Below are positions 17,581 to 61,251 of a stretch of 64,000 nucleotides of DNA, one piece after another. Location: positions 1,449,693-1,513,692 of the forward strand of contig OZ245758.1 of assembly GCA_965227405.1 (NCBI GenBank), read 5' to 3'. This stretch comes from Polyangiales bacterium (GTDB lineage: Bacteria > Myxococcota_A > Polyangia > Polyangiales > Houyiibacteriaceae). The position numbers and the translations under genes were made by a program. The stretch's first letter is position 1. Each line of letters opens with the position of its first letter. The notes below the pieces were generated by a model. The model ran no database searches, was not told where the DNA came from, and worked only from the letters and a program-made list of their open reading frames with translations.

Positions 17581-17994
17581 ATGAAACACGCCCTCTGCGT
17601 CCTCGCGCTCCTCGCTTGCGGCTCGTCAGACGAAGCCACCACTTCATCCTCCACCGGCGGTGAACAAGAGGGTCCGTGCCCGTCTGACTTTGATGAGTGC
17701 TACGACGCAGACTCGCGCGCGGAGTGTCTCTCGGTCGCTGAAACGTGCCCGGAAGAGAACATCGTGGTCTTGGAAAGCTGCCCGGTTCAGTACGCGTGCG
17801 ACGAACCCAGCGTTGCTCCTGCGGATGGCGACGAGCCTGTCGCTTCCGACAACGGCGACACCTGTGCGGGATACAGCGTCACCGACTCGTGTATGAACGA
17901 AGAGAACTTCGCAGCATGCCAAGCAGCTGAAGCCCAGTGCCCAGGTTCGGTCGCCGTGATGGAGAGCTGTCCACTGCAGTTCGCGTGCGAATGA
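17581..17994 (+). CDS. Small secreted lipoprotein with two tandem copies of a 4-Cys module
   Basis: [16 protein letters not shown] lipobox. Module 1 is [28 protein letters not shown]. Module 2 is [26 protein letters not shown]. Confidence 0.6.
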
Positions 17995-22070: not shown

Positions 22071-22130
22071 AGGGAACTATATCAACCCGAAGCGGCCGAA
22101 CGTACGGTCGAATCGGTCGTCGTAACATCA

Positions 22131-23234: not shown

Positions 23235-23399
23235 GCCCGTGATAGAGCAGAAACCGATCCAACGGGATTTGCTCCGTAAACCCTCAGAATTATAGATTTT
23301 CAGGGATGGGGTGGCTTGGCCCCTGGTGCCAGCCGTCCCCGGCGTCTGGACCCCGAATCGACGCTGGGGACTCTACTCCTCTGACGGCTACTGCCACAT

Positions 23400-26219: not shown

Positions 26220-26252
26220 GCATCCCCCCAGTTTGGGGTGCAGAGTATTTAT

Positions 26253-29287: not shown

Positions 29288-29413
29288 GTCCTAACCCTAC
29301 GTGATTCTCGGGACGAAGTCCGATGTAGGGACAAGACCCACATCTACGCAATCGAGATAACGGACGGCGCCCCTATACTGTGAGGACAGTTCACGGACTG
29401 GAAAGGGAAGAGG

Positions 29414-31033
29414 ATGACCCGTCTCGGACTGCTCATGGTCGCGTGTCTCGCGCTCGGTGCTTGCGCCGGTGAGATCACCGAACCGGAAGGCGACTCGCCG
29501 TACAATCCGGTGCCTCCAATTGATCCGGTCGATCCGGAAGACTTGGCGCCTACGTTTCGCTTGGAGCCGGATGCGCCGACAACGCAGCCCGGTATTCGTC
29601 GTCTGACGCACAGCGAACTGGTTCGCACGATCCGTCACGCCACGGGAGTCACTCCGGATGTAAGTGCGCTTCCGGAAGATGACGAGCTGCTGCACCTGGC
29701 CAACGACGCAAGCCGGCTGAACATCAGCGACGGCACGCACATGCGTGAGCTTCTGGTCATCGCGACCGACGTCGCTGCGGCTGTGGACATCGATGCTGTT
29801 CTCCCTTGCGCAGGTGCCTGCAACGACGACGAGCTTCGCACGTATCTGGAGCGCGCGTTTAGTGAGCCTCTCGACGCGGACACGATGACCAGGTTCCGCG
29901 ACATCTACGCACAAGCGCAGTCCGAACTCAGTGGTGAGCTGGCGCGTCGTGCAGTGGTGCAACAGTCGGTGTTCTCGCCCAAGATGCTGTACCGCACCGA
30001 AATCGGTGAGGGCGGGGATCTGACCTCCAGTGAACTCGCCAAGAAGCTCTCGTACTTCTTGTGGGGTCGCCCACCTGACGATGCGCTTCGAGCGCGTGCC
30101 TTCGACGGAAGCCTAACTGACGAATCGGTCTATTCCAGCGAGGTGGAACGCTTGCTCTCGCACGACAACACCCGCGAGCGCATCGTCGAAATCGTGTTCG
30201 ATTACCTGGGCATGGATCACTTTGATCTGAGCACCAAGGACGCGTCAGCGGACCTGGACGACATCAGTGCACTCGAAGCTTCAATGATCGAAGAAGCAGA
30301 GCGCATGATCGGTCGGGTGCTCTTCGAAGAGGCCAGCGGGTTCCGCGAGCTTCTCACCACCGAGACCACCGAGGTCGATGAACTCTTGGCGATGCACTAC
30401 GGCATCGAGGGTGTGACCGGCAGCGAGTTTCAAGAAGTGTCGCTGGCAGGCACCAGCCGACGAGGGTTACTCACCACCGCGCTCGCACTTTCGGCGCACT
30501 CGAAGGAATCAGGTCGCTCCCCCATGCAGCGCGGTTCCTTCCTGGTGGACGAACTGCTCTGCCTGAGCTTTCCGCCCGATGCCGGTACCGCCTCGATGAC
30601 GCTGCCGGACGGTGTTGAAGACCGAACCTTTCGCGAGCAGTTCGCTCCGCTGGAAACGACCGCACCGTGCAGCAACTGTCACCGCATGCTCAACGCCGGT
30701 TTTGCGCTCGACCTCTTCGACAACATCGGTCGTCGTTACCCACTCAGTCGCGTGGGTGATGAAGAAGCTGTTGGCACGCTCGACGTCGTCCCCTTCGATT
30801 CAGTCGAGTTCTCAAATCCTGGCGAAGCCGTTGAAGGATTCAGTCTGCATCCGGTCTTCACGCGATGCGCTGTTGGGCAGGTCTACCGCTACGGACAAGG
30901 CAGCGTGCCTGCGGATGTCGACGCCGATCTGATGATGAACCTCGAAGAATCCTTCGATAGCAGCAACGGAAACATGCTTGAGCTGCTTCGCTCTATCGCG
31001 CTGTCTGAGCGCTTCGCGGAGGCTGTCCGATGA
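29414..31033 (+). CDS. DUF1592/DUF1585-family lipoprotein with CxxCH motif
   Basis: MTRLGLLMVACLALGACAGE lipobox and CSNCHRMLNAGF CxxCH. Confidence 0.8.
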   Translation: MTRLGLLMVACLALGACAGEITEPEGDSPYNPVPPIDPVDPEDLAPTFRLEPDAPTTQPGIRRLTHSELVRTIRHATGVTPDVSALPEDDELLHLANDASRLNISDGTHMRELLVIATDVAAAVDIDAVLPCAGACNDDELRTYLERAFSEPLDADTMTRFRDIYAQAQSELSGELARRAVVQQSVFSPKMLYRTEIGEGGDLTSSELAKKLSYFLWGRPPDDALRARAFDGSLTDESVYSSEVERLLSHDNTRERIVEIVFDYLGMDHFDLSTKDASADLDDISALEASMIEEAERMIGRVLFEEASGFRELLTTETTEVDELLAMHYGIEGVTGSEFQEVSLAGTSRRGLLTTALALSAHSKESGRSPMQRGSFLVDELLCLSFPPDAGTASMTLPDGVEDRTFREQFAPLETTAPCSNCHRMLNAGFALDLFDNIGRRYPLSRVGDEEAVGTLDVVPFDSVEFSNPGEAVEGFSLHPVFTRCAVGQVYRYGQGSVPADVDADLMMNLEESFDSSNGNMLELLRSIALSERFAEAVR

Positions 31034-32436
31034 GTAACTTCAAACACAAGCGCCGAACGTTCCTGCGCAACTCGGTCATGGCGAGCTTGCTCGCACCCGT
31101 TGCCTACTACTGGGACGACCTCGCCGAAGCACAGCCCATCGCTGGACGCACGCACATGGTGTTGGCGTTCCTTCCGAACGGAAAGGTCGCGGGCAACCCG
31201 TACATCATGGGGAGCGGAAGCGACTTCACCCTCGGCTACGGCTACGAGCCCTACATGGCGTTCAAGGACGACATGATCCTCTTCGATGAGTACGGCTTTC
31301 AGTCGTTCATCGCAGCCGAGTACAGCGGCGACCACGGCGGTCACGTGGCGCCTGGTGGTGTGATGTGGTCCGGCGAAGTCCCGCACGCGGTTGACGGCGA
31401 GGGTCGTGCAGGAATGGCGCCTTCGATCGATCAGATCGTCGCGTGGGACTACTTGGACCGAGGCGTGATCACCAACCCGCTGCGCAAGAGCCTCAACATC
31501 AAGATGACCGGAAGCAGTTTCCGGTTGAGCACGGTGTTCGTGGACACGCCTGCGGACTATTCGTTGGGGGCGACCTACACGCGCGCACTCGATTCGATTC
31601 CGCAGCACAACCAGCCGCAAGACGGCTTCGAACAGATGTTTGGTGGCTTCGCGACGATGGCGGGAAGCACCACCGAGGAACTCTGGGCGTTCGGCAAGAG
31701 CATCCTGGATGTTCCGAACGCGGAGCTGCAGCGCATTTACCCGCAGCTTCCACGCGAAGGTCAGATCATCGTCGACGAGCATCAGCAGTCACTGCGTGAT
31801 TTGGAGCTGAGCTTCATGGACGAAGGCCCACCGCCCGGTGAAATCCCGCCGGAACCGGGTTCGATGGACACAGCGCCGGGCAACCACGTCAACGTGTGGT
31901 CGCAGTGGGTTCGCATCATCGATGCCGCGCTGCGCTTTGATCGCACCCGCATCGTGAACGTGCAGTTCGGTGGTGTGGCGAGCCGCTTCAAAGTGCCCGA
32001 ACTGGGCCTTGGCTTTGTTGGCGAGTCCGGCGACAGCAACTCGGGCGACGACCACCACAGCTACACGCACTGGGATGGCGACAACGTTCCGCACTTCATG
32101 AACTGGTACGCCGAACGCATGTCCGAGCTACTGGGTGCGATGAAGGGCGGAACCGCGAGCGGCAGCACCAACCTGCTGGACTCGAGCGTTGTCGGCGTCG
32201 GTATGGAGTTTGGTCGCAACCACAACGCGAGCGACATGCCGGTGATGTTGTTTGGCAGCTTGGGCGGCTATCTGCAGCCCGGGCAGCGGATCATGCACGG
32301 CAACGATCTGGACAACTACCACAAGCACACCGGCATGCTGATGGCGTTAGCGCAGGGCATGGGAACGAGTCTTCCGAACGTGGGCAATCCGAAGTCGCAG
32401 TATCAGCAGGGCGTGTATTCGGCACTGCTCGCCTAA
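31030..32436 (+). CDS. DUF1552-family secreted protein with Tat signal
   Basis: KRRTFLRNSVMASLLAPVAYY Tat motif. ATGA overlap with the DUF1592 stop. Confidence 0.8.
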   Translation: MSNFKHKRRTFLRNSVMASLLAPVAYYWDDLAEAQPIAGRTHMVLAFLPNGKVAGNPYIMGSGSDFTLGYGYEPYMAFKDDMILFDEYGFQSFIAAEYSGDHGGHVAPGGVMWSGEVPHAVDGEGRAGMAPSIDQIVAWDYLDRGVITNPLRKSLNIKMTGSSFRLSTVFVDTPADYSLGATYTRALDSIPQHNQPQDGFEQMFGGFATMAGSTTEELWAFGKSILDVPNAELQRIYPQLPREGQIIVDEHQQSLRDLELSFMDEGPPPGEIPPEPGSMDTAPGNHVNVWSQWVRIIDAALRFDRTRIVNVQFGGVASRFKVPELGLGFVGESGDSNSGDDHHSYTHWDGDNVPHFMNWYAERMSELLGAMKGGTASGSTNLLDSSVVGVGMEFGRNHNASDMPVMLFGSLGGYLQPGQRIMHGNDLDNYHKHTGMLMALAQGMGTSLPNVGNPKSQYQQGVYSALLA

Positions 32437-37951: not shown

Positions 37952-39079
37952 TTAGGCGCGTCGGGCAAGCGGGGATCCGACCGCTTTCACTGCCGCACAT
38001 GCGCGTTCCACGGCTTCTTCTGCAGGCGCGACCACGAAGATCAGCTCTTTGTTTTCCGTGTGCGAAACCTTGCCCACCTTCTGACCCTTGGGATTGTGGA
38101 TTCCGATCTTGGCTCCGACGTACCGACCGAATGCAACGGGAACAACACCCACGTGGCCTTTGCTCTCGAGAATGCTCACCACCACGTCGCGAGAGAGGTA
38201 GCCCTCGTTGTTGAACGAGACGACCAGGTTCGGAGCACGAACCGCGTCCACGACCGCGCGAAACGCGTCTTCGATCTTGCGCTTGGAGTTGAACTCGCTC
38301 TTTCGTTCGCGACAGTCCGTTCGTTTGCGGGCAACTCCATACGCTTCAGGCGCGTCCCAACGAACGAGCGTTTCCCAGATGTGATAGTTGCCTAAGTAGC
38401 TGTGCTGGTTGTACGGCGGGTCGAGATACACCGCGTCGAGATCCTGCTTCGCGGCTTCGAGCGCATCGCCTTCGCGCGCGTGTCCCTTCCCAGGAACGAG
38501 CTCGGGCAAACGTAACTGCAGATCATTGTGCGCGCGCTTCGCCCATTTCTTGAGATAGGCCATCTGCACGCCCGTTGTGCTGTCCACGCGATCCGCCGCC
38601 TCCATCAGGGAGACAAGAACAATCGCGCGTACGTTTTCGTTCAGGTCGAGTTCGTCGATCGCATCTCGGATCGCGTCGACCTTGGCGCCGTTCTTCGGAT
38701 GGAAGTAACGAGCGTCGCGGCAGAAGGTTTCCGTGAAGTAGCCGTCCTTCGGTGTGACCGAGGCGAGCTTGGCGAGATGTTTCTCGGCGTGTTCTGCATC
38801 TTGTTGTGTTGCCGCGACGTAACAGCGAGCAAGCGTCGCCGCGAAACGGAGTTGGTCGTTGGCGAAGACTTCGTATCCGGCTTCGCGTAAGGCACGACCG
38901 ACTCGCGCCGTTCCGCTGAACAAGTCGCCGACACGCTTCACATTGGGAAGCTCCGCGAACGCCGCCAGGATGTGCGGAAGCAGAAGGCGTTTGGATCCGA
39001 GGTACTTGATCACGTCGGCGGCGACACCATAGGACGGAACGCCGAGGTTTTTGGTCCTTTTCGGGGGAGTGCGGTTCAT
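37952..39079 (-). CDS. Dam-family (D12-class) DNA N6-adenine methyltransferase, with no adjacent restriction gene
   Basis: KYLGSKRLLLPHI (cf. Dam KWAGGKRxLLP) and YLDPPYNQHSY (DPPY catalytic motif). The ATG at 39077-39079 lies inside a dispersed repeat element. An internal GTG (VAADVIKYLGSKR) is an alternative start. Confidence 0.8.
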   Translation of the reverse strand: MNRTPPKRTKNLGVPSYGVAADVIKYLGSKRLLLPHILAAFAELPNVKRVGDLFSGTARVGRALREAGYEVFANDQLRFAATLARCYVAATQQDAEHAEKHLAKLASVTPKDGYFTETFCRDARYFHPKNGAKVDAIRDAIDELDLNENVRAIVLVSLMEAADRVDSTTGVQMAYLKKWAKRAHNDLQLRLPELVPGKGHAREGDALEAAKQDLDAVYLDPPYNQHSYLGNYHIWETLVRWDAPEAYGVARKRTDCRERKSEFNSKRKIEDAFRAVVDAVRAPNLVVSFNNEGYLSRDVVVSILESKGHVGVVPVAFGRYVGAKIGIHNPKGQKVGKVSHTENKELIFVVAPAEEAVERACAAVKAVGSPLARRA

Positions 39080-39107
39080 TTCTGACCCTGTCCCCAAACT
39101 GAACCCC
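39073..39107 (-). repeat. Dispersed palindromic repeat element, copy A (subfamily 1). The minus strand reads GGTTCAGTTTGGGGACAGGGTCAGAAATGAACC, with an about 35-bp conserved extension running into the Dam 5' coding region.
   Basis: Near-identical to copy E (59871-59905). Inverted relative to copy D (59777-59809). Confidence 0.7.
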
Positions 39108-39158
39108 CAAAAGAATACCCGCCGCATGGTGGTGCGGCGGGTTTCGATAGGTTCGGGT

Positions 39159-41017: not shown

Positions 41018-41024
41018 GGTTTCG

Positions 41025-42857
41025 TCAGTGTGCGTGGCCGTGACCGCCATGCCCGTGACCGCCATGCCCGTGACCGCCATGTCCGTGACCGCCATGTCCG
41101 TGACCGCCGTGTCCGTGACCATGTCCGTGGTGCCCGCCGAGTGCTGCTAGCCAACCGCGTAGACCCGAGAACCACACCCCTGCACCGGCGAGCAAGCAGA
41201 GCAACGCAAGTCCCACGTTGGCCCACCAGCCGTGAGCGTGTGCATGACTGTGATACGCAACGGGAACCGTCGGATCGAGCGCGTTCAACCCCACGCCAAC
41301 ACCCCACGCCACAACAACCAGACCCGCAATGGCACCCAGCGCTGCACGAGCTCCATACGCCGCACGAAGCCAGCCCACCGTGGCCAGATTTGTGGCGGGG
41401 CCAAGCAGCAGCCCGACGAGCACAGCACCCGGTGAAAGACCTTTGCCGATCAAGACCGCGGCCAAGGGCGTCGCACTTGTCGCGCACACGTAGCTCGGCA
41501 CAGCGACCATCGTCACGACCAGGAAGTCGGCGAACACGCCCCACCCTTCGAAGGCATCGCTCGGAAGCACGGCCTGCAGATACGCCGCGGCGAGCAAACC
41601 AACCGCGGTCCAAGGCAGCGTGTGTCGCAACACTTCGTCGAGCTGCGCAAAGAAGAACTTCAGGCGCGAGCCCTCAGGTCCTGTATCGACGACTGGACCG
41701 ATCTCGGGCGCAATGGTCTGACGCTTTTTCAGCAACGAGGAGACCAGTAGTGCCGCCACGAGCGAGACCGCCATGGCCGCGAGCAAGCGCGTCCACGCAA
41801 AGGTCCAACCGAGGAACTTCACCGAGAGCGCAAAGGTCTCGATGCCCAGCTCAGGCGTCGCTAGGAGCAACGCAACCACCAACGCTGGCGCCGCTTTGCG
41901 CTGCTTCAGTGATTGCGCGACAGGCAAGATCCCGCACGCGCAAATCGGCAAAGGCAGCCCCAACAGCACGCCCTTTCCAGCTAGGCGGAACGACGAACCA
42001 CCTCGCAGCCAACGATCTGGAATGTGTCGTCCGAACGTTTGGAGAATCGCCGCAAGCGTGAGTCCGATCAGGAGAACCGGCGCCGTTTCCAAACTCAACT
42101 CGAGCAACGCTGCGCCCGTGTCCGCACGAACGCTCTCGGCAAGATTGATCCCACCAACACCAGGGTGACCTTGCCCAAGAACCACCAAGGTCACCCCCGC
42201 AGCAGCCGCACCAAAATCGGTGAGCCGAGCTGCCCAACCGGTTGGCATCGCGGCAGTCCACCCGTGCATCACCACGTGGAGGAGCAAACCCGCCGTGGCG
42301 GCCGACACCCAGGGATGCGCAGCCATCAGCGCATCGGTGGGCACCAGGTTCACCAACAACACCCCAACCACGGCACACGTGGCGAGAATCCCGGCGCGCA
42401 TCAATGCGTGCTTCATCCCTCGAGGGAGAAACGCGAGCACGACCATCACAGTCACGGGAACCGCATGCGCAGCAACCGCAAAGAGAACATCAAACGATGG
42501 CGCGACCGGACCCACGCCGGGCCAAATCGGCGAAGCAAAGTGACCCAGCGCAATCCCGTCGGCGACCTTGTGGAGACACAGGCCCACAAAACCAAGCTCG
42601 AGACCGAGTGCACGGTTGCTCGACACGTGCGCCCATCGATCCAAGCCCGCGGCGAAAACCAGACTCAGCGCAAACACGACAAGCGCAACCAAGCCAACGC
42701 CGGCGAGTGCTTCGGGCAGCAGGTGCACGAGCACCACACCCAACGCAGACACAACAGCAAAGGTCTGAATGCCCGTGAGTGCGGTGGCTGTCCGCGAGAG
42801 CGCGAGCAGCGTGCCGAAGACGACAGACCCGATGGCGATGGCCAACGCGATGGTCAT
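41025..42857 (-). CDS. Metal transporter fusion: N-terminal ZIP-like (ZupT-like) half, C-terminal DUF318/ArsP-type permease half (CxC motif), and a C-terminal (HGHGG)n His-rich tail
   Basis: ZIP-like HKVADGIALGH. DUF318-like LPICACGILPVAQSL. C-terminus GHHGHGHGHGGHGHGGHGHGGHGHGGHGHGGHGHAH. About 14 TM segments. Confidence 0.7.
   Translation of the reverse strand: MTIALAIAIGSVVFGTLLALSRTATALTGIQTFAVVSALGVVLVHLLPEALAGVGLVALVVFALSLVFAAGLDRWAHVSSNRALGLELGFVGLCLHKVADGIALGHFASPIWPGVGPVAPSFDVLFAVAAHAVPVTVMVVLAFLPRGMKHALMRAGILATCAVVGVLLVNLVPTDALMAAHPWVSAATAGLLLHVVMHGWTAAMPTGWAARLTDFGAAAAGVTLVVLGQGHPGVGGINLAESVRADTGAALLELSLETAPVLLIGLTLAAILQTFGRHIPDRWLRGGSSFRLAGKGVLLGLPLPICACGILPVAQSLKQRKAAPALVVALLLATPELGIETFALSVKFLGWTFAWTRLLAAMAVSLVAALLVSSLLKKRQTIAPEIGPVVDTGPEGSRLKFFFAQLDEVLRHTLPWTAVGLLAAAYLQAVLPSDAFEGWGVFADFLVVTMVAVPSYVCATSATPLAAVLIGKGLSPGAVLVGLLLGPATNLATVGWLRAAYGARAALGAIAGLVVVAWGVGVGLNALDPTVPVAYHSHAHAHGWWANVGLALLCLLAGAGVWFSGLRGWLAALGGHHGHGHGHGGHGHGGHGHGGHGHGGHGHGGHGHAH
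41031..41120. repeat. 15-bp tandem repeat (gtgaccgccatgccc, about 6 copies) encoding the (HGHGG)n tail
   Basis: Read directly. Confidence 0.85.
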
Positions 42858-42913
42858 GCACGCCTCATGTCCTTGAACCTACAGGCGAAACGCCCGGGCG
42901 CAAGGATCCTGCA

Positions 42914-45712
42914 CTAGGCGTCCGGTGCGGTAACCTTTTTGGCGGCTTTCTTCTTCGCAGCCTTCTTGGTCGTCTTCTTCGCGGCCTTCTTGGTCGTCTT
43001 CTTTTTGGCGGCCTTCTTGGTCGCCTTCTTCGCAGTCTTCTTCTTAGCTGCCTTCTTCGTCGTCTTCTTGGTCGACTTCTTCTTGGCTGCCTTCTTGGTC
43101 GACTTCTTCTTCGCCGCCTTCTTTTTCTTCTTCTTCGGGTTCGCGGCTTCTCGCTCCCGACGAAGCTGCAGCAACTCGGCCGCGCGGACGACGTCGATGG
43201 TCTTCGGATCGTCGCCTGTACGCAGCGACGCGTTGGTATCGCCATCCGTCACGTAGGGGCCCCAACGACCCTCCTTCAACACGATGGGCTTCTCGCTTAC
43301 CGGGTCGGTCCCGATCTCGCGCAGCGGCGGCTTCTCCACCTTGCCGCGTCGCTTCTTCGGTTGCGCCAAGAGTTTCAGCGCATCCTCAAGTGTGATCGTA
43401 AAGAGCTGGTCTTCGGTTTCGAGACTGCGGTTCTCTTTGTTGTGAACGATGTAGGGCCCGTAGCGTCCGTTGAACGCCATCACCGGCTCACCGTCCGCAG
43501 CGATGCCCACCTCACGCGGTAGCGAGAGCAACTTGAGCGCCTGGTCGAGCGTGAGCTCTTTCGGCTCCATGCTCTTGAGCAACGACGCTGTCTTCGGCTT
43601 CTCCTTGGCGTCCTTGCCACCCTCGCCGAGCTGTACGTACGGCCCGTAGCGACCCGCCTTGAGGAAAATCGTCAGGCCCGTGTCGGGATCGGCGCCGAGT
43701 TCACGGTCATCCGAAGGCGCGTCGAGAAGTTCGATCGCTTTCGCGAGATCCAACTCGTCCGGTGCGAGGTCGGGTGGAATCGACGCGGTCTTCTTGTCGT
43801 CGTCGACACCGGTCTGCACGTAAGGGCCGTACTGACCCATCCGAATCACAACGGCTTTGCCGTCCTCGGTTTTGCCGAGCGGAAACGTCTCGAGACGCTT
43901 CACCTCTTCGAGGTCGATCTCGTCCATCTTGGTTTTGACGCGGGTCTCCAAACCCTCGTCGCCCAAGAAGAAATCCTCGAGGTACTTGCTGCGCTTGCCC
44001 GACCCACTCGCGATCGCATCGAGGTCATCCTCCATGCGCGCGGTGAACTGGTAGTCCACCAAATCGCCGAAGTGCTCCTCGAGCAGACGCACGACCTGGA
44101 ACGCCTTGAACGAAGGAACGAGTGCACGTCCCTTCTTCCACACGTACCCACGGTCTTGAATCACGGACATGATCGACGCGTAGGTCGACGGGCGTCCGAC
44201 ACCCAACTGCTCCAGCATCTTGACCAACGACGCTTCGGTGAAACGCGCAGGTGGCTTGGTCTCGTGACCGGCCACCTCAAGGTCCGTTGCGGTGACCTTC
44301 TGGCTCTTCTTGAGCGGCGGCAGTTGCTTCTGGTTCTTGGCGAGATCCTTTTCGGGATCGTCGCTGCCTTCCACGTACGCCTTCTGGAAACCAGGGAAGG
44401 TAATGGTCTGACCACTCACACCAAAGAGCACCGACTTGCCGGCGGTGGTCTTGGCTTCAAGCGTCACGCTCAGGGTCTGTCCCTTCGCATCGGCCATCTG
44501 TGAGGCCACGGTGCGCTTCCACACCAGCTCGTAGAGCTTGGCTTCTTGCGCACCCACTTCCTTGGCCACCTGCGCAGGCATCTTGAACTCGTCGCCCGCG
44601 GGGCGAATCGCCTCATGAGCCTCTTGCGCGTTCTTGACCTTGCGCTTGTAGATGCGCGGCTCTTTCGGGACGTAGTCGTCGCCGTAGAGCTCTTTGATCT
44701 GCTTGCGCGCGGCGTCCAATGCCGTGTCCGAAAGCGTAGTGCTGTCGGTACGCATGTAGGTGATGTAACCGGTTTCGTAGAGGCGCTGCGCAACACGCAT
44801 TGTGCTGCGTGCACCCCAACCAAACTTGCGGCCTGCTTCCTGCTGAAGCGTCGAGGTCATGAACGGCGGCGCCGGTCGACGCGTCAAAGGACGCGTTTCG
44901 ACGGAAGCAACCGTAAAGCTCTTGCCCTTGAGATCGGTCGCCAATGTGTTGGCTTCCGCCTCGCTGAGGCACACGACATCTTTCTTGAGCTTGCCGTCCG
45001 CACCGAAGCTCTGACCGGTCGCGACGCGCTTGCCGTCGAACTCTTTGATCTCGGCTTCGAACTTCTCGTCCTCTTGCGTGACGAAGAGTCCGTCGAGATC
45101 CCAATACGACGCACGTACGAATGCAATGCGCTCACGCTCGCGCTCAACCACGATGCGCGTCGCAACACTCTGAACGCGACCCGCGGACTTACCGCGGCTC
45201 TTACGGCGCGACATGTCGCTCATCGCAAAGCCGTAGAGTCGGTCGAGAATGCGTCGTGCTTCTTGCGCGTCGACCAAACGCGTATCGATCTCGCGCGGAT
45301 TATCGACGGCCGCGAGAATCGCTTTCTTGGTGATCTCGTGAAACACCATGCGCTTCACGGGCACCTTGGGGTTGAGCACCTCCACGAGGTGCCACGCGAT
45401 GCTCTCCCCTTCGCGGTCCTCATCAGTCGCGAGCAGAAGTTCATCGGACTGCTTCAGAATCTTCTTCAGCTGCGCGATGTGCTTCTTGCGATCCGGGGAC
45501 ACGATGTAGAGCGGCTTGAAGTCGTCCTCCACATCGACCGCGTAGGTCTTGATGTAGGTGTTCTTGGACTTGACCTCTTTGGTGAGCTCCGAGGGCCGCG
45601 CGAGATCGCGGATATGCCCAATGGAAGACTCCACCACGAAGTCAGAACCCAAGTATTTCCCAATGGTTTTGGCCTTGGCGGGAGACTCGACGATGACGAG
45701 GGCGCGGGACAT
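42914..45712 (-). CDS. topA: DNA topoisomerase I with a Lys-rich (AAKKK/TKKAAKKK)n C-terminal tail
   Basis: Toprim N-terminus MSRALVIVESPAKAKTIGKYLG...GHIRDL. Type IA topoisomerase core. About 90-aa Lys/Ala/Thr tail. Confidence 0.95.
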   Translation of the reverse strand: MSRALVIVESPAKAKTIGKYLGSDFVVESSIGHIRDLARPSELTKEVKSKNTYIKTYAVDVEDDFKPLYIVSPDRKKHIAQLKKILKQSDELLLATDEDREGESIAWHLVEVLNPKVPVKRMVFHEITKKAILAAVDNPREIDTRLVDAQEARRILDRLYGFAMSDMSRRKSRGKSAGRVQSVATRIVVERERERIAFVRASYWDLDGLFVTQEDEKFEAEIKEFDGKRVATGQSFGADGKLKKDVVCLSEAEANTLATDLKGKSFTVASVETRPLTRRPAPPFMTSTLQQEAGRKFGWGARSTMRVAQRLYETGYITYMRTDSTTLSDTALDAARKQIKELYGDDYVPKEPRIYKRKVKNAQEAHEAIRPAGDEFKMPAQVAKEVGAQEAKLYELVWKRTVASQMADAKGQTLSVTLEAKTTAGKSVLFGVSGQTITFPGFQKAYVEGSDDPEKDLAKNQKQLPPLKKSQKVTATDLEVAGHETKPPARFTEASLVKMLEQLGVGRPSTYASIMSVIQDRGYVWKKGRALVPSFKAFQVVRLLEEHFGDLVDYQFTARMEDDLDAIASGSGKRSKYLEDFFLGDEGLETRVKTKMDEIDLEEVKRLETFPLGKTEDGKAVVIRMGQYGPYVQTGVDDDKKTASIPPDLAPDELDLAKAIELLDAPSDDRELGADPDTGLTIFLKAGRYGPYVQLGEGGKDAKEKPKTASLLKSMEPKELTLDQALKLLSLPREVGIAADGEPVMAFNGRYGPYIVHNKENRSLETEDQLFTITLEDALKLLAQPKKRRGKVEKPPLREIGTDPVSEKPIVLKEGRWGPYVTDGDTNASLRTGDDPKTIDVVRAAELLQLRREREAANPKKKKKKAAKKKSTKKAAKKKSTKKTTKKAAKKKTAKKATKKAAKKKTTKKAAKKTTKKAAKKKAAKKVTAPDA

Positions 45713-46128: not shown

Positions 46129-46205
46129 GTCGATCTAGTTCCTAGAAAAGTGGGTCTGCCGAGATAGCGGATCCCTTTCGGGCGTGCAACTCACGCCAAA
46201 GTCGA

Positions 46206-46249
46206 GGTGTAAATTCCAGGGACAGGTTCATTAATGAACCGACCCATGG
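46206..46249 (+). repeat. Dispersed repeat element, copy B (subfamily 2): GGTGTAAATTCCAGGGACAGGTTCATTAATGAACCGACCCATGG, with a conserved extension (AACTnnCTGAAAT) shared with copy C
   Basis: Contains the perfect palindrome GGTTCATTAATGAACC. Its ATG starts track ORF 46234..46572, which is rejected as a gene because it is antisense to the sulfatase 3' end. Confidence 0.65.
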
Positions 46250-46294
46250 TCGCCAACTACCTGAAATCGCTCAGGTCGAGAAAACGAGCGACCC

Positions 46295-51315: not shown

Positions 51316-52017
51316 CTAGACCAGTTCGGGAGCAAACACCTCCACGTCCACGCCGGGCGAGTAGTGGATCAACTCCGGTCCTTCGCTCGGTGCAGGCAGG
51401 GCCGCCGCTGCGATCAACGACTCCTCGCAACGCGTCACCTGTGCGTCGAAGGCGGGGTATGGAACGTGATGCACCTGGCCACGAACAAGCCGACCGCGCT
51501 TGATCGCGAACAGATAGTAGCGCTCCAAGAAGAAGTGCTCATGTGAACCCAAGGGTGATGCGCCGAGCTCGTTCCCGATCGTGTAGTCGACCCGAAGGTG
51601 CGCTCCATCGGCGTGACGAACGGTCTCGAACGTTCCCGCCGACGCCGACATCGTCGCGTGGTGATAGGGCAAGCCCCAACCGGTACGCGCGGCTTGAACC
51701 GCAAGCCATGAGCTTGCTTCAAGCGAGAAGAAGTACACGCCCGGCTGATCGTTGTAGTGCACGTACGTGCGTAGGTTGCATTCGAGAAAGTTGAACGCGA
51801 GTGCGCTGGGCCACCACGAAGGCGCGATGTCACGCATCAGGAAGGGAACGACACCCACCCACGCACGCCCGTCGTAGAGATCGAGTTCGAGCTCGTCAGG
51901 AACGACGGCGCGCATCGCGTCAACAGGAACCGACCAGTGAAGGAAGAGCAACTCGCGCCAACGCTGAGTACCCGCGTTGGATCCAGGCGGTCGAATCGAA
52001 GGAGCGTGCCGATCCAC
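51316..52017 (-). CDS. DUF2071 (YqjF-like) family protein
   Basis: N-terminal WRELLFLHW and the overall pattern are typical of the DUF2071 family. Confidence 0.6.
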   Translation of the reverse strand: MDRHAPSIRPPGSNAGTQRWRELLFLHWSVPVDAMRAVVPDELELDLYDGRAWVGVVPFLMRDIAPSWWPSALAFNFLECNLRTYVHYNDQPGVYFFSLEASSWLAVQAARTGWGLPYHHATMSASAGTFETVRHADGAHLRVDYTIGNELGASPLGSHEHFFLERYYLFAIKRGRLVRGQVHHVPYPAFDAQVTRCEESLIAAAALPAPSEGPELIHYSPGVDVEVFAPELV

Positions 52018-52021
52018 AAGT

Positions 52022-52733
52022 CATGGTTACGGTACTGCTCTTGAACGTTCGAATCCATCTCGACCACCCGCTTTCGCTCGCGCAGATCCGCGGGTTGCGA
52101 AGGCTTGTGCCGTATCTCCGCACGCGTCGTGCTGTCGATATTCGGGAGATTCTCGCGCGACAGCGTTGGTGGATTGCAACTGGGGTCAACGACATCCGGA
52201 AAGCCCTGCGTGAGTTGGGATTCCGGTTCGAGACGTTCGAACACGGTGAGTACGGTGCGACGTTTCTCCGCTCTGTACTCACGTCCGACCTCGAAGCCGA
52301 AGACGCGGGGTTTGACGTTGTCTTTGAGCCCTCGTTCACTCCACAAAGCATCGTTTGGGCCAGTGCTGAACGCATCGAGCTCGTGGCGTCACCTGTCGGT
52401 CTTCACACGCAGTTCTTCACCGACTCGCAACACGCGTCGCACCAAGAGTTCCAGGTCCTTCGAGAAACCATCACGTATCGCGAGCCAGCGCTTCAACTGC
52501 TCGCGCACGCGACTCCCGATCGTGGAAGAGATTTTGGTCTTGATGGAACCACCGTGACGCTTCGATCACGCCGGACGAGCGAAGTGCGCACCACGGAGAT
52601 GTGGTGTCCGTCACGTGCGAGCCACACTGAGGCGTACTCGGTGATCGCACGCGTACTGACGCTGCTGGAAGACGAGCTACGCGACGAACGCCTGCGACGT
52701 TGTGTGCAACGTTTGCGCTCAACGCTGGGCTAG
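52022..52733 (+). CDS. Hypothetical protein. Coding status is uncertain.
   Basis: Open frame with protein-like composition, but GC3 is clearly lower than in neighbouring genes, and its start lies 5 bp from the divergent DUF2071 start. Confidence 0.3.
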
Positions 52734-52770
52734 TACCGTTTCAACGCCAAAGTGATCTTAGCACCCACGT

Positions 52771-53694
52771 TCACCACTCCACCCAACAACGCGCGCACAG
52801 CACGAGTGCTTCTTCGATCACCCGCACCTCGCCTTCGACACCGCACTGCGGGCACTCGCCAGTCGTCCACTCCGCCGGCTTGGGATCGTCCATGGTGCCG
52901 AGAAGCGCTTTCGAGGCAGCCGCGAGCTTAACGCGCATGTCCGCTCGAAGATCCTCGCGTTCCTGCTTGCGCCACCGACGTTCAGCCTCTTCTGCTTCAC
53001 GTTGCTCGCGCGCCTCAATGTTCTGCCGAAGCGCAATCATTGGGTCCGTGGGTCGATATGGAATGTCGTAGTCGGGCCCTTTCGCTTCGCCGGCTTCTGC
53101 ACGATCAAGCCAGTGTTCGTACCAGTCCAGGAAACTGGGCCCGGCGGGAGTGAAGCCTGCTGGTAGTTCGCCGGGCACCTTCGTGAAAGGTCCAAATGCA
53201 CCGGCGTTTGGTTCGTGCGTCCACACTTCGTCGGCGTGTGGTCCGTTCAGCACGAGCATGCCCGACGTTCCAGAGTCGTAGCTCACAATTGTCAGCGTCC
53301 CGTCGCCAAGCTCGTCTCCGCGTTCCCAGTCGTCGTCGGACCGCACTTCGATCCCGGGAAACGCGCGAGTCTCGCCGTCAAACTCACACGCCGCTGCCAC
53401 CACCGCCTGCCCATAGTATGCGTAGTCCAACGGGTCGCCGTCGGTCCTCGCGTCTGGAACCACGCGGTCTAGAGTCACGAGTGCGAAGCGTTCCAAGCTA
53501 AACGCCGGACCAGCACCGCCGTTTCCAACCGTCTGGATGAACGCTCGATACTGCGGAGGCAGCCGGATCCCACGCGCCTCTTCGATCTCAACGACCTGTT
53601 CTTCGCTCAGCACGTTGCCGATTTCGAAGCCGAACTCACGTTCCAACGCTTCAAGCCGCTCAATGATCTTCGTCAGGCGCCCGGCGACATCCAC
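52771..53694 (-). CDS. SMI1/KNR4 (SUKH-1 superfamily) immunity-like protein with a C-terminal CxxC...CxxC zinc ribbon
   Basis: RLPPQYRAFIQTVGNGGAGPAFSL matches the SUKH signature (LPxxYxxFL...NGG). C-terminal CPQCGVEGEVRVIEEALVLCARC. Confidence 0.7.
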   Translation of the reverse strand: MDVAGRLTKIIERLEALEREFGFEIGNVLSEEQVVEIEEARGIRLPPQYRAFIQTVGNGGAGPAFSLERFALVTLDRVVPDARTDGDPLDYAYYGQAVVAAACEFDGETRAFPGIEVRSDDDWERGDELGDGTLTIVSYDSGTSGMLVLNGPHADEVWTHEPNAGAFGPFTKVPGELPAGFTPAGPSFLDWYEHWLDRAEAGEAKGPDYDIPYRPTDPMIALRQNIEAREQREAEEAERRWRKQEREDLRADMRVKLAAASKALLGTMDDPKPAEWTTGECPQCGVEGEVRVIEEALVLCARCWVEW

Positions 53695-54416: not shown

Positions 54417-54458
54417 GCCGGTGTATCGGCCTACGCCACGATGAGTTGCTTCGAAGGC

Positions 54459-55193
54459 TCAGTTCGAACCGCAACTGATCAATGCGGTGCCGCCAGGTGT
54501 CTGAACTTCACGCGCACAGGTCACCTCGCAGCGATCCGGGCCGTGGTACTCGAACAGCACGCGGTAGCTGGCGTTGGGCTCGATGTGAATGGGGAAGCTG
54601 CGATTGCATCCGCGTTCAGCGTAGCGACGGACGCTCGTCGAGTGATGGTATCGCGTGACAGTGTACGATCGTCCGTTGCGATACTCCGTGCCCAAACTCG
54701 TCCAGTTGTGATGTCGGATTTGCTGAATCACCGGCGCACTGCCAACGCTGAGGTACTGAGTGCCTGCCTCGACCGGAAACGCGAACGCACCCGGATCACG
54801 ACGACGAACGATCTCACCATGACCCTGAACGCGATATGTCTCGCGTTGCGCGATCCCTTCGGTTGAGTGGTAGTGCGCCTCGATTTTCACAATGCCTTGT
54901 GCAGCGTTTTCGGGGGGGGCTTCGTAGGACCGATCATCACGACAACTACCGTTTCGACTGCCGAAGGGATCGCACTCCAAGCGCGCCACACGACCGCAAC
55001 CCCAAGCAACCCAACGCTGTGCTCGTCCCGGCAGCGGGTCCCGACGGTACGGATTGTCGGGCGCTCGCGCGATCTCGACATCGTCACAATCGAGTTGCTG
55101 CTCGATCATATCGCGTGCGTGGTGACGCGGTCGAAAGGGCTCCCGGACAGCACAGGCCTGGACAAGCAAGGCGAGAATCAACAGCTGTTTCAT
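54459..55193 (-). CDS. Hypothetical secreted Cys-containing protein
   Basis: Signal MKQLLILALLVQACA. Confidence 0.45.
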   Translation of the reverse strand: MKQLLILALLVQACAVREPFRPRHHARDMIEQQLDCDDVEIARAPDNPYRRDPLPGRAQRWVAWGCGRVARLECDPFGSRNGSCRDDRSYEAPPENAAQGIVKIEAHYHSTEGIAQRETYRVQGHGEIVRRRDPGAFAFPVEAGTQYLSVGSAPVIQQIRHHNWTSLGTEYRNGRSYTVTRYHHSTSVRRYAERGCNRSFPIHIEPNASYRVLFEYHGPDRCEVTCAREVQTPGGTALISCGSN

Positions 55194-55801
55194 CGGACGC
55201 TCCGGAGGGCAATGGTCATGGCGACAGTGCCGTACGCGTCGAGCCAGGACTCGCCGCCGATCTCACGAAGGTTGATTCCTGCTTCGACCTCGGTGGCGAC
55301 GATTTTGCCGATGTGAAAACCGACGTGCGGGCCTATGTGCCAACCTTCATCACGTGCATCGTTCTCGAACGACCAGTCGTAGCTGATGCCACCGTGACCA
55401 CCGAGGAACACCGACACGATCCCAGCACTCGCGCGGACGCGAAGCTTCGTTCCGACATCCAGCAATGCGTGGTCGCGTGGGTCATCAAGAATGTCATCGG
55501 TACCTTCGCGCCACCAACCAGCGCGAGCGTACAGACCAATGCTAAACGCGACGCCCAGTGCAACGTCCACACCCATGCTGCCCACGACGCCAGCCGAGAT
55601 GGCGTCGTCGCCATGGTCGCGAAGGGGAATGAGCATTTGTGCGCCGATGACCAATCGTGGAACGCGAAGGTAACCGCGCTCGTTCGACAGCGGGTCGAGC
55701 TCAGACGTGTTGACCCGATGCCGGGTTAGAGGGACGTCCCACTGCGCTTGGGCAACACTGGTTGTCGCAGCAGCGAGAAGAATGAGGATGACGCGAGGCA
55801 T
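55190..55801 (-). CDS. Hypothetical secreted protein (possible small outer-membrane beta-barrel)
   Basis: Signal MPRVILILLAAATTSVAQAQ. Alternating hydrophobic pattern and Gly-rich strands. C-terminal aromatic-like end. Confidence 0.45.
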   Translation of the reverse strand: MPRVILILLAAATTSVAQAQWDVPLTRHRVNTSELDPLSNERGYLRVPRLVIGAQMLIPLRDHGDDAISAGVVGSMGVDVALGVAFSIGLYARAGWWREGTDDILDDPRDHALLDVGTKLRVRASAGIVSVFLGGHGGISYDWSFENDARDEGWHIGPHVGFHIGKIVATEVEAGINLREIGGESWLDAYGTVAMTIALRSVR

Positions 55802-55871
55802 GCCGGCTTATCGGCGCGGCTAAGCACCAGTTGCTTGTTCCGTCAGATTCAATAATTTCAGCCAGTTACAG

Positions 55872-55916
55872 CTCATGGGTCGGTTCATTTCTGAACCTGT
55901 CCCTCAAATTTACACC
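55872..55916 (-). repeat. Dispersed repeat element, copy C (subfamily 2). The minus strand reads GGTGTAAATTTGAGGGACAGGTTCAGAAATGAACCGACCCATGAG, 60-110 bp upstream of the minus-strand gene starting at 55801.
   Basis: About 85% identical to copy B over 45 bp, plus a shared downstream extension. Confidence 0.65.
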
Positions 55917-55992
55917 TGGGCTTTGACGGGGCGGTGTTGGTGGGCCATACATCCGGCCCCGCTGCGTATGACCCGCAGGGGCGAGATTTTCC

Positions 55993-58076: not shown

Positions 58077-58387
58077 GCCCCTGTTGGATCCAGGTCCGTG
58101 TGGGGACGTAGTCCGTACGGACCTGAACCTCGAAAACCGCCCGTTTCCTTCGCAGAATCGAACGCGACCCTGCTGCAACGGTTCTCTGCACGCGTGAAAC
58201 AGCGAGAACCGTTCGGTCTGCACGAGCGATTGGCGCATCGGTCCACAACAAGCCAAGCGCAGCACTTCCCTCTGAACGCACTCACACCAGACTTCGATCA
58301 CAGCCCCATCCCGGGAGCTGGTCGCGGGCCCTCCACATCTCCCCTCGGAATCGGCATCCCAAAAAGCCGATCGTGCCCGCGACCGAA

Positions 58388-58441: not shown

Positions 58442-59743
58442 ATGGCGTTTCGGGACGACCGCGAGGCTCTGCGAGCCAAAAGCGATGCGCTCGAAGCGGA
58501 TCTCGCCGAGGCTCAAGAGCGACTGCTCGAACTCGAGAGTCGTGGGGACGCGGACCAGCGGGAACTGCGACGTCTTCGTCGACAACTAGCGCGTGCAGTA
58601 CCGAGCCGTCGTGTTCCGGTTCTGTCCATCTTGGTGACACTCTTGTTCTTGTTGGGAGTGATCGGGGGAATGCTGGCGTTCAGCCAAGACGACGAAGCGC
58701 CCTCCGACACCGTCGACGAGCCTGAACAGGCTCCGCTTGCTCGAATCGAAACACCACCGCGTGTCGCATTTGGTGCACAGGTGATTCGCTCAACAGGAGC
58801 CACCATCGATTCGGGTTGCGTGTTCGTCGCAAATCTTGAGCGTGGACCTACGGTCAGTCGCTTGGTTGCGCGATGCGACGACCAGGTGCTCTTTGACTCC
58901 AACGTCGAGCAGCCGGGTGTTCGTATCCGGGACCATCAGGTGCACGAAATCGAACAGCACGAGTTGCTGCAGTACCGGTTGCGGTATCGGGACACGGGAA
59001 GTGCGGGCACACAAATCGTGGTCGATTCGCAGCATCGCCGTGCGCGGATTTGGAACGACGCGGTCGACCTTCGCTTTGCGCTGGACGATCGAAGTGGAGC
59101 GCGTGCGGGAGCACGGTTCGGACAGCCATTGTCGCAGCCGATTGCGGACTCGCTGCATGTTCGAGCGGTTCCGATGTCGAGCCGAGGCAACGCGCCAGAG
59201 TTGAGCGAGATGTGCGAGCTTCGCGTGCATCCCGCAGTGGGCCGCGAATCGCAGAACTGCCGAATCGTCGTGGATTGCGGGACGATTCTCTACGGTGCGA
59301 ACAACGGTGGGTACAACGAGTGCACCTTCGATGAGGGCCGACCCGATACCGCACGAGATTCACGCGGAGCCGACTTTGACGGGGACCCAAAGCTGACGCT
59401 GAACTTTCAGGAACGAACGCTCGTGGTCGAAGACGCGTGGCGCCACGAGTTCACCTTGGAAGAAGACGAACGTTGCCAGATCGCCGGAGCGTGGGACGGA
59501 GATTTCCGAAGCATGGGGCTGTACGTGTTCACGCAGAACGGCAGAACGCTCGCGACGACCGACCTCGCCGATTCGATGGTGTGGGATGCGCGGGTGGATT
59601 TGGACTGCAAGAGCGGACAGGGAACGATCGAGATCGACGACCACGGGTTGTTCGAAGGTCGATTTGGACCTGGCTTCCAAACCTTCGTGGGTCACGTGCG
59701 CAGCCTGGACGCGACGACCTTCTACCTAATGCGAACCGAGTAA
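58442..59743 (+). CDS. Hypothetical bitopic membrane protein (N-terminal coiled coil, one TM helix, about 340-aa extracytoplasmic domain)
   Basis: RVPVLSILVTLLFLLGVIGGMLAF TM segment. Confidence 0.55.
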   Translation: MAFRDDREALRAKSDALEADLAEAQERLLELESRGDADQRELRRLRRQLARAVPSRRVPVLSILVTLLFLLGVIGGMLAFSQDDEAPSDTVDEPEQAPLARIETPPRVAFGAQVIRSTGATIDSGCVFVANLERGPTVSRLVARCDDQVLFDSNVEQPGVRIRDHQVHEIEQHELLQYRLRYRDTGSAGTQIVVDSQHRRARIWNDAVDLRFALDDRSGARAGARFGQPLSQPIADSLHVRAVPMSSRGNAPELSEMCELRVHPAVGRESQNCRIVVDCGTILYGANNGGYNECTFDEGRPDTARDSRGADFDGDPKLTLNFQERTLVVEDAWRHEFTLEEDERCQIAGAWDGDFRSMGLYVFTQNGRTLATTDLADSMVWDARVDLDCKSGQGTIEIDDHGLFEGRFGPGFQTFVGHVRSLDATTFYLMRTE

Positions 59744-59776
59744 CCTTCGTCCCGCAATCGGGTAGATTGAGCAAAA

Positions 59777-59905
59777 GGTTCAGATTGGGGACAGGGTCAG
59801 ATCTGAACCGGACTCCTCCGAAAACGACCCACTTTCCTCGTGATCGCGAATTGTATGGTCACATAGTTCAGTTCAGTTCTGACCGTGTCCCCAAACTGAA
59901 CCCCC
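59777..59905. repeat. Inverted pair of subfamily-1 repeat elements: D at 59777-59809 (+) reads GGTTCAGATTGGGGACAGGGTCAGATCTGAACC, and E at 59871-59905 (-). They are separated by about 61 bp between convergent genes. MITE-like or bidirectional-terminator-like.
   Basis: D equals the reverse complement of A with 3 mismatches. E matches A with 33/36 identities. Confidence 0.7.
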
Positions 59906-59923
59906 ATCTGGGATTGAGGACGC

Positions 59924-61153
59924 TTAGGCGGAGTCGTGGTTCGCGTGTTGCGCCGCAACCATCGCGCCGGTCCACCACTCGTAGTCGCGTCCCATGGGAT
60001 CACCATCGGGGAAGAACACGAGGTAGCTCATCGAGTCGTAGGGAACAAAGCTCGGTCGACCCCCGGCCAGGTTTCCGATCTGGTGCACGGTTCGCCACGT
60101 TCCGGTGTTGAAGTACACGGCGTTGTTTCCATCCACGGTTCCGAGCGGAACCATCGACGAAAAGTGCGAGTGACCATTGACCACGTACTGAAAGCCTTTG
60201 CGCTTTCGTAGCTCTTCCACGCCACGCACGGCCATCTTCCCGTCCATGCCGTGCTGAATCATCTTGTAGACCTTCGTCAGCCGCTGGTCGCTTCCACGCG
60301 CCACCACTCGCTTGGTTGAAAGCTCCAACAAGAGCTTCAACTTCTGACCGGTATGGAACCCAAGTTTCTTGGACTCCGCGGCACGACGTTGACGCATCCA
60401 ACCCCGCACAAAGGGTTTGGAGAAAAAGTCCTCCACCAACATGGACCACGTTTGCCCTGCCGGCTTCAGCAGCTCCTTACGGATAATCCCCAGCTGACGC
60501 ACCCACGCCGGCACCGCGTAAATCGGTCGCACATCGTCGATGTCATCCAGCAGATTTCCCAGTGTGGGCTCGGGCAAGAGTCGCTTCACGTTCCGCGGAA
60601 AGCGCGTGATCAACTCCAACCCAATCGCGTCACCAATCGTTCCCTCTTTGGGATGCACGGTCGCATTGATCGGGTCACCCACGTGCCCGTGGTACGCGAG
60701 CACTTTGTGCTCCGGAAACTCCGCATCCGAACGAAACTCGACATCTTCGTCTTTGCCGGTGAGTGCTTTCCAGATCATCCGTCGTGACTTGGGCGCCGAC
60801 GCCAAAAGTCGGTCGTGGTTACCCAGCAAGTAGGTGATCTCGAGTGCACCCGCTTCAACCTGCTGACGAATCGCGGCAAAGAAATCTTTCTCACGATCCA
60901 GGATGCGTTCGACGATTCCATCGACGGTGTCGATCACTCCACCCACGGCTTCGTGGTACGGGCGGTACGCACCATCCAGCCACGTCGGCGAACGCACCAG
61001 GTCGAAGAGGTCGCCAGCAAACACCATCTTGGCGGGACGCTTGCCACGCGCGGCCTGAATCCGAGTCCAAAATCGCTCGAAGGTAAGCGCGCGCGGGATC
61101 GAGCTGCCGTGAAGCGCATCCGTGAGGTGGATGTCGCTCACGAAGATCAGCAT
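59924..61153 (-). CDS. Calcineurin-like metallophosphoesterase
   Basis: MLIFVSDIHLTD, GDLFDL, LLGNHD, YHGHVGDP metallophosphoesterase motifs. Confidence 0.75.
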   Translation of the reverse strand: MLIFVSDIHLTDALHGSSIPRALTFERFWTRIQAARGKRPAKMVFAGDLFDLVRSPTWLDGAYRPYHEAVGGVIDTVDGIVERILDREKDFFAAIRQQVEAGALEITYLLGNHDRLLASAPKSRRMIWKALTGKDEDVEFRSDAEFPEHKVLAYHGHVGDPINATVHPKEGTIGDAIGLELITRFPRNVKRLLPEPTLGNLLDDIDDVRPIYAVPAWVRQLGIIRKELLKPAGQTWSMLVEDFFSKPFVRGWMRQRRAAESKKLGFHTGQKLKLLLELSTKRVVARGSDQRLTKVYKMIQHGMDGKMAVRGVEELRKRKGFQYVVNGHSHFSSMVPLGTVDGNNAVYFNTGTWRTVHQIGNLAGGRPSFVPYDSMSYLVFFPDGDPMGRDYEWWTGAMVAAQHANHDSA

Positions 61154-61251
61154 CGGCCTATCCCCCATGAACACACCGATCCTAAACGACTCGGCCTTCG
61201 ATCGCGGTCACTTTTTGCGCAACTCACACCCTCAAAGTCCGATGAGCTTGC

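Follow-up and report, generated by a model that had tools for sequence, protein, structure and literature searches.

Two inverted copies of a short repeat, here called D and E, occupy the gap between two convergent genes in a 64-kb stretch of DNA (the window) from an uncultured Myxococcota. On balance, we favour the view that the pair is a doublet of a lineage-specific REP-like (REP/BIME/REPIN-like) repeat, the hairpin units of which, 33-53 nt in length, form a dispersed intergenic family, and we infer both that an enzyme moves these units and that they act on the 3' ends of RNA. The family carries a conserved GGGGAC(A/G) loop, and its arms vary by subfamily and lineage yet stay complementary. 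The best reading of the family is that of a new sequence family belonging to a known kind of element (REP/BIME/REPIN-like), and the layout of the pair fits a REP doublet (REPIN/BIME-like) better than a miniature inverted-repeat transposable element (MITE).

The inverted pair and its gene gap

The window has a GC content of 61% and reads as housekeeping chromosome, carrying topoisomerase I, hemB, L31, DUF1552/DUF1592 pairs and fatty-acyl reductases; no tRNA gene was found in its 64 kb. The genes on both sides of the pair are convergent, in agreement with an earlier sequence-only reading of this DNA. The upstream gene (58442..59743, + strand) encodes a lineage-specific protein of 433 aa in which no Pfam domain was found and for which Logan assemblies gave two homologues, one at 98% and one at 72%. 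The gene facing it (59924..61174, - strand) encodes a metallophosphoesterase of 416 aa, whose homologues come from Myxococcota, Sandaracinaceae or Polyangiaceae MAGs, identifying the host as an uncultured member of the Myxococcota. Elsewhere in the window, positions 19087-32436 hold three consecutive DUF1552 (HXXSHH) + DUF1592/1588/1595/1585/1587 gene pairs, a paralogous expansion of a type characteristic of Planctomycetota and Myxococcota. Tandem repeats of 12-18 nt that keep the reading frame lie in or near coding sequence (42908-43161, 41020-41135, 17255-17476 and 16870-16929) and include the lysine/alanine-rich tail of topoisomerase I and a histidine-rich stretch. The gap between a LolA-like gene and the gene next to it contains inverted repeats unrelated to D and E (5441-5464/5503-5526, 24 nt, 96%; 5483-5518/5575-5610, 36 nt, 75%) with the core AAAATGACTAG.

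Unit D (59777..59829, + strand) is a full-length copy of 53 nt that begins 34 nt beyond the stop codon of the 433-aa gene, and unit E (59865..59906, - strand) is an inverted copy of about 42 nt that lacks part of the unit and sits 18 nt beyond the stop codon of the metallophosphoesterase gene; both are in sense orientation. The 35-nt spacer between them (59830..59864, no strand assigned) shows weak self-pairing. The hairpin of D consists of a 9-bp stem (GGTTCAGAT/ATCTGAACC) and the loop TGGGGACAGGGTCAG, followed by a tail, GGACTCCTCCGAAAACGACC, that is common to D and to a third copy, A (39053..39109, - strand). The hairpin of E has an 8-bp stem (GTTCAGTT/AACTGAAC) with an internal CTGAA duplication, and is without the 3' tail of D and A. 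At their outer ends, CAAAA precedes GGTTCAG on the D side and CTGAACC is followed by CCCAT on the E side. A repeat search returned arms of 38 nt (59777-59814 / 59865-59902) that are 87% complementary and separated by 50 nt; measured on the cores of 33-35 nt (59777-59809 and 59871-59905), the separation becomes 61 nt. The initial description of D and E as inverted copies at least 90% identical to A and about 61 bp apart was thus borne out, the D 33-mer recurring at 39073-39105 (- strand) with 3 mismatches (30/33) and E being 94% identical to A over 36 nt and 90% over 42 nt.

The complementarity continues outside the units. The left flank (59744..59776), which forms a small local hairpin (CAATC..GATTG), carries CGTCCCGCAATC, complementary to the right flank (59907..59923; ..GGGATTGAGGACG), so that the palindrome reaches both stop codons. 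Structure prediction for the 180-nt intergenic region between the stop codons gave -79.7 kcal/mol on the + strand (z = -6.6) and -81.0 kcal/mol on the - strand (z = -6.5), confirming the long imperfect palindrome proposed between the convergent 3' ends. The accompanying proposal, that each unit is a hairpin in itself, holds at the level of sequence, where the stems are 8-9 bp long, but the folding energies of single units are unremarkable (z = -1.3 for D, -1.5 for E and -0.3 for A).

A pair of this kind had been likened to a MITE or to a bidirectional terminator. MITEs carry a target-site duplication abutting their terminal inverted repeats and occur as several full-length copies with the same interior. 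We consider it very unlikely that the pair is a classical MITE, i.e. a deletion derivative of a DDE transposon with terminal inverted repeats that inserted once between these genes, even though it has inverted terminal arms of 38 nt, a total length of 129 bp, no coding capacity and a 7-nt direct repeat, GATTGAG, near both ends. No target-site duplication directly abuts the ends of D and E. The two GATTGAG copies (59765-59771 and 59912-59918), tried as such a duplication, are offset by 5 nt at the D end and by 6-9 nt at the E end, and are accounted for by the palindromic flanks (CAATC/GATTG). Searching the 64-kb window, we found no second full-length copy of the 129 bp, and no other match to the spacer at E < 0.5. 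Moreover, the unit stands alone as copy A, the likeness of D to A over 53 nt runs into the supposed interior, and the units are unequal in length (53 vs 42 nt). No parent IS was found, no transposase or integrase domain was detected among the 55 ORFs of the window, and there was no match in the plasmids, phages or viral contigs searched.

The terminator reading did not hold in its canonical form either. An intrinsic terminator is a GC-rich stem-loop followed by a U-tract, considered for each transcribed strand. A scan of positions 59000-60600 detected 0 terminator-like sites, and the only U-rich run is a UUUUG that trails the long hairpin in the minus-strand transcript. A textbook terminator was found at 39142-39117, with copy A beginning 8 nt downstream of it, and another lies between hemB and L31 in a ~75% relative (L135); canonical terminators therefore occur separately in this lineage.

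Subfamily S1 and GGGGAC-loop hairpins across the window

Copies A, D and E make up subfamily S1, with three copies in 64 kb; 0 of 100 shuffles gave two or more matches to the D 33-mer. D and A are 89% alike over 53 nt, the full unit being GGTTCAGNTTGGGGACAGGGTCAGANNTGAACCGSACTCCYCCGAAAASGACC, GGTTCAG..TGAACCGSACTCCYCCGAAAASGACC, which indicates that the unit is longer than the 33-35 bp originally described. A similarity of 84 nt between A and D beyond ..GACC came from a gapped local alignment and was given no weight. The three copies are near-equidistant (3, 3 and 4 differences per 33 nt), so a recent local inverted duplication did not give rise to the pair. Unit positions 8 and 26 form a base pair, and at both of them D departs from A and E (T-A to A-T), a compensatory change that came from sequence similarity and not from a structure search.

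Copy A is a solitary full-length unit located upstream of, or overlapping, the 5' end of a D12 DNA methyltransferase ORF. An ATG within it (GAAATGAACC; window 39026-39109) is in frame with this orphan N6-adenine DNA methyltransferase (ORF 37952-39127, - strand), the Pfam domain of which begins at residue 42. Copy A may provide the ribosome-binding site and start codon of the methyltransferase, or may sit in its 5' UTR.

The members of the wider family have a common layout, a hairpin of 8-9 bp with a loop of 13-17 nt that contains an invariant GGGGAC(A/G). A covariance model (R1), built as a 9-bp stem around the GGGGAC loop and used with an E cut-off of 0.01, found six members in the window (A, D, E, 58091-58125 and two blocks referred to as S2), all six of them intergenic. 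A model match at 42162-42197 was a hairpin inside a coding region and was rejected as a member. Counting the motif by itself, 5/14 GGGGAC[AG] 7-mers fall within the intergenic 5.3% of the window (p = 6e-4). The fifth intergenic GGGGAC is in 23234-23400 (- strand; GGGGACG at 23334), ~60 nt beyond the stop codon of a 939-aa beta-helix gene, where it forms a weak bulged hairpin (CCAGacGCC-GGGGAC-GGCTGG) that may be a decayed family member.

The degenerate look-alike reported next to the short-chain dehydrogenase/reductase (SDR) gene proved to be a real hairpin of the same layout (58091..58125, + strand; 9-bp stem, arms CAGGTCCGT/ACGGACCTG, GGGGACG loop; z = -3.5), but its arm sequences are unlike those of the units. 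It starts 15 nt beyond the SDR stop codon and is retained in a relative with 97% identity, with one loop change.

The S2 blocks comprise S2a (46194..46267, + strand), a longer stretch of conserved sequence ahead of an 87-aa CxxC ORF, and S2b (55855..55928, - strand), in the divergent gap that precedes the gene for ribosomal protein L31. The two blocks are 74 nt long and 81% complementary to each other, and have the core GGGACAGG + GGTTCATTAATGAACC (GGTTCA..TGAACC) in common with the S1 units; in the S2 blocks, GGTTCATTAATGAACC is a near-perfect 16-bp palindrome. S2b is kept at the same position in two relatives (97% and ~82%), its hairpin showing a compensatory change. Each block precedes a small gene of the zinc-ribbon type by ~80 nt: for S2b this is L31 (55993-56238, + strand), and for S2a the 87-aa CxxC..CxxC ORF (46128-45865, - strand). 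The blocks resemble a promoter, operator or leader shared by these genes more than they do a mobile copy. We considered and rejected a small ORF that begins at the ATG of the unit (MNRP.. in S2, MNRTPPK.. in A); in the 97% relative the S2b ORF stops at codon 9, indicating that coding is unlikely.

The promoter-side position of the S2 blocks, ahead of two small zinc-ribbon-type genes, together with their 16-bp palindrome, would agree with the family being double-stranded DNA binding sites of a regulator or nucleoid protein, i.e. operator-like palindromes, D and E being two adjacent sites. We regard this as the least probable of the explanations considered here, given that the S1 copies are at gene 3' ends, between convergent genes, with nothing to regulate, that arm sequences vary freely from one subfamily to another, a latitude not open to a sequence-specific operator, and that the turnover described below is rapid.

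Comparing 8 units that represent six independent arm types, we found that 88.9% of the cells were paired, that 8/9 pairs change on both sides, and that no shuffle or shifted register came close; because these units had been picked for having stems and are a biased sample, the count describes the family and is no proof of structure. Support for the structure that is independent of this choice comes from the S1 change at positions 8/26, from the S2 orthologue of a ~82% relative (L004), where C-G is replaced by A-T, and from matches of the model to units on which it had not been trained. In addition, 6/6 copies located no more than 60 nt from a stop codon are in sense orientation (D, E, 58091-58125, A, the end of contig L002 and L010 14484; two-sided p ~0.03). 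This orientation bias could fit a role at the RNA level, such as 3'-end protection or damped convergent read-through, or else a bias of insertion.

Turnover of the gap in relatives and wider distribution

The gap between the 433-aa and metallophosphoesterase genes is occupied differently in every relative recovered, even in one that is otherwise 97% identical. In this relative (contigs L002 and L003), nucleotide identity to the window is 97% up to position 59747, 4 nt past the stop codon, and is followed by ACCTTGGGGACAGGTAAACTGGTTTACCGGACCT and the end of the contig; the unit there has the layout of D (arm, TTGGGGACAGG, hairpin, CCGGAC) but GTAAAC arms. A search for the far side of this gap with the C-terminal 150 aa of the metallophosphoesterase gave no fragment of >81% identity. 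Six contigs of a ~82% relative (L004-L009) all end in ..GGTGCACTGGTGCACTTGTCCCC, a unit with GTGCAC arms in the opposite orientation. In another ~82% relative (L010/L011, two ENA assemblies), the gap is 112 nt long and contains unrelated hairpins and no GGGGACA unit. The ~75% relative (L135, an NCBI Myxococcota MAG) is without the 433-aa gene, and its metallophosphoesterase gene overlaps the SDR gene, leaving no gap. The site is therefore not fixed, where an identical sequence in all relatives would have spoken against a mobile element; no precise empty site or excision was found among the relatives recovered. It is from this turnover of the site that we infer mobility of the units.

Eight Logan contigs, one from each of 8 samples, break off at the same base within a unit, and not where the strains diverge, and L004 also begins inside a unit, its S2 orthologue. 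De Bruijn-graph assemblies break at repeats of about 30 nt or more, which indirectly suggests that the units are multi-copy in those genomes, with near-identical copies of at least 30 nt elsewhere. The units thus break short-read assemblies of this lineage, and, as they mark gene gaps that turn over even at 97% genome identity, they can serve as strain markers.

This turnover also bears on an alternative that we think unlikely, namely that the GGGGAC-loop hairpins are an RNA element selected by the host, a 3'-end or regulatory motif (terminator, stabiliser or protein-binding) that is recognised by a factor and arose or was kept at many gene ends, the pair being its two-way version. Such an element would explain the sense orientation of all six copies near stop codons, the conservation of the loop while the arms vary, the retention, in the 97% and ~82% relatives, of the hairpins orthologous to 58091-58125 and S2b, and the UUUUG after the long hairpin of the minus-strand transcript. 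However, a canonical U-tract is missing, and copy A, lying 8 nt behind a fully canonical terminator, is not needed there. Wholesale replacement of the gap at 97% genome identity suits insertion or deletion over selection in place, and the contig breaks imply near-identical copies elsewhere in the genome. The element also corresponds to no Rfam family: there were 0 gathering-threshold matches across the window, and a local Rfam search by E-value gave only far-sub-threshold chance matches (two microRNA families and one SECIS element).

The relatives differ from the window at further places. L010 and L011 have GGGGAC families of their own, with hairpins after hemB and upstream of L31, and 16-mer tandem arrays. 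The tandem 16-mer GGGGACGGAGCTACTG occurs in inverted arrays (L010 9919-9960, + strand, and 17849-17881, - strand; L011 3-60 and 7970-8002) that bracket a syntenic block of ~7.9 kb in this ~82% relative, comprising the metallophosphoesterase gene, L31 and four further genes, up to a 90-aa ORF. Two genes (244 aa and 203 aa) at 54432-55849 are absent from the 97% relative (L002 7374-7404) and present in L010; the ~37-nt direct repeats at the junctions (ATGCCGG..TATCGGC..AGTTGCTT) suggest that recombination between similar 5' regions removed them. Positions 52017-52771 are swapped in the 97% relative for ~2.3 kb that include an Exo_endo_phos gene (L002 2594-4867), a second variable spot <8 kb from the pair.

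Beyond the relatives, the exact S1 core was absent from the genome and metagenome collections searched (the metagenome scan with the exact pattern gave 0 matches); the sole genome-collection match lay inside a gene on a Parcubacteria contig of 33% GC and was dismissed as chance. A looser pattern, TTGGGGACAGG-N12-CCGSAC, was then applied to the metagenomes, and among the 120 matches listed only L078, L110, L125, L100/L081 and L101 looked related, several of them at 65-70% GC. Most of the 120 were chance matches or unrelated repeats, e.g. a repeat family in contigs of 45-55% GC and a conserved soil RNA-like block. The contig L078 (70% GC) has two palindromic pairs of the form GGGGACAGGTAGATTTCTGAACCGGAC-loop-reverse complement, the first of which fills the gap between two convergent stop codons exactly, while the right-hand gene of the second is unconfirmed. 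Other paired copies therefore exist, as pairs of a related family in a different organism. L110 and L125 each carry single units. In L081 and L100, CTGAACCG-nn-GGGGACAGGTAC-TTnG-GTTCA is repeated in arrays, both tandem and inverted, and these units are outside the training set of the covariance model yet were detected by it (E = 2.5e-4 to 7e-3). These arrays (L081 2742-2925 and 602-677; L100 1881-2023 and 4088-4165), with TGAACCG/CGGTTCA arms and a GGGGACAGGTAC loop, are on contigs of 70% GC and adjoin the gene of a CCA-adding enzyme.

GGGGAC-loop hairpins thus occur in several Myxococcota lineages and on unrelated 70%-GC metagenome contigs (L081/L100). One could take the invariant GGGGAC(A/G)G loop with its freely varying arms as the mark of a distinct, undescribed class of element that is read by a loop-specific factor, either a new kind of single-strand DNA transposase that recognises the loop instead of the foot of the stem, or a protein that binds RNA at the 3' ends of genes. 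We hold this to be decidedly unlikely; if it were true, the sense-orientation bias would reflect function and not insertion history.

Comparison with known repeat elements

Returning to the reading that we favour, a REP-like doublet, an enzyme encoded elsewhere would copy or move the units by way of the hairpins they form in single-stranded DNA. By analogy, the candidate model for this enzyme is an HUH/Y1 transposase of the RAYT type, a choice that follows from the lack of target duplications. Once inserted, the hairpins would act as 3'-end RNA structures that shield the upstream mRNA from exonucleases or damp convergent read-through. Since D and E are just past the stop codons in sense orientation, both convergent transcripts could end in a unit or in the 38-bp long hairpin. 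For the two neighbouring genes, the consequence probably goes no further than the structure of RNA 3' ends.

REPs are imperfect palindromes of ~20-40 nt that are strictly extragenic and present in tens to hundreds of copies per genome. In RAYT-REP systems, a single-copy gene for a RAYT (HUH/Y1 transposase) is flanked by the repeats, and in the RAYT-associated REPs the 5' foot of the palindrome bears a conserved GT[AG]G head. In REPINs it is the doublet that replicates; doublets are over-represented, show better conservation than singlets do, and are excised in one piece. The units described here are palindromic, with stems of 8-9 bp and the compensatory change at 8/26, and extragenic, as seen for 6/6 members in the window; the tally for S1 within these 64 kb is one doublet and one singlet. 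No RAYT or other transposase was found in the 55 window ORFs or in 10 ORFs adjoining the related elements in L078/L100, and neither GTAG nor GTGG recurs at a set position across the S1 copies, the sole GTAG being 12 nt upstream of D. For these two reasons we liken the pair to REP/REPIN elements and do not file it in the RAYT-REP family.

REP/REPIN-type repeats are well studied in Gammaproteobacteria. In the literature searched, no report of them in Myxococcota was found, and nothing relevant on the motif itself. A Myxococcota family in which the loop is conserved and the arms can be exchanged would widen the range of REP/REPIN-type elements and, if the moving enzyme is found, could point to a different mode of recognition.

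Like bidirectional terminators, the pair is a palindromic hairpin between convergent stop codons; unlike them, it has no flanking A- or U-tract, its stem is interrupted and very long, and it is repeated at unrelated loci. With MITEs such as Correia/NEMIS, ERIC and RUP it shares small size, non-coding content, intergenic location, inverted ends and the possibility of forming an RNA hairpin, but it lacks a target-site duplication and a conserved interior, and its ends also occur free-standing. The likeness to the BIMEs of E. coli lies in REP units that alternate in orientation within gene gaps, often at gene 3' ends and between convergent genes, with proposed roles in mRNA 3'-end stability or attenuation. 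The D/E sequence is unrelated to that of BIMEs and forms a single pair instead of a cluster, clusters being seen in the related L081/L100.

A REPIN is defined as a hairpin-forming pair of REPs of the same group, inverted and separated by a variable spacer, and is accompanied by decaying singlets elsewhere (PMC3337134); REPINs and REP singlets have been described in Pseudomonas and Enterobacteria (PMC3337134, PMC3116915). The anatomy of D and E corresponds to this published definition (PMC3337134). The pair departs from REPINs in that its conserved part is in the hairpin loop (GGGGACAGG) and not at the foot of the stem, and in having no GTAG-type head; its units are also longer (33-53 nt) and unequal, no RAYT was seen in the window, and the host belongs to the phylum Myxococcota. 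In common with REPINs, D and E are inverted copies of one short, palindromic, extragenic repeat around a poorly conserved spacer of tens of nt, the two are members of one subfamily, a long hairpin forms from the element as a whole, singlets are present elsewhere, no target duplications are made, and several subfamilies exist within one genome.
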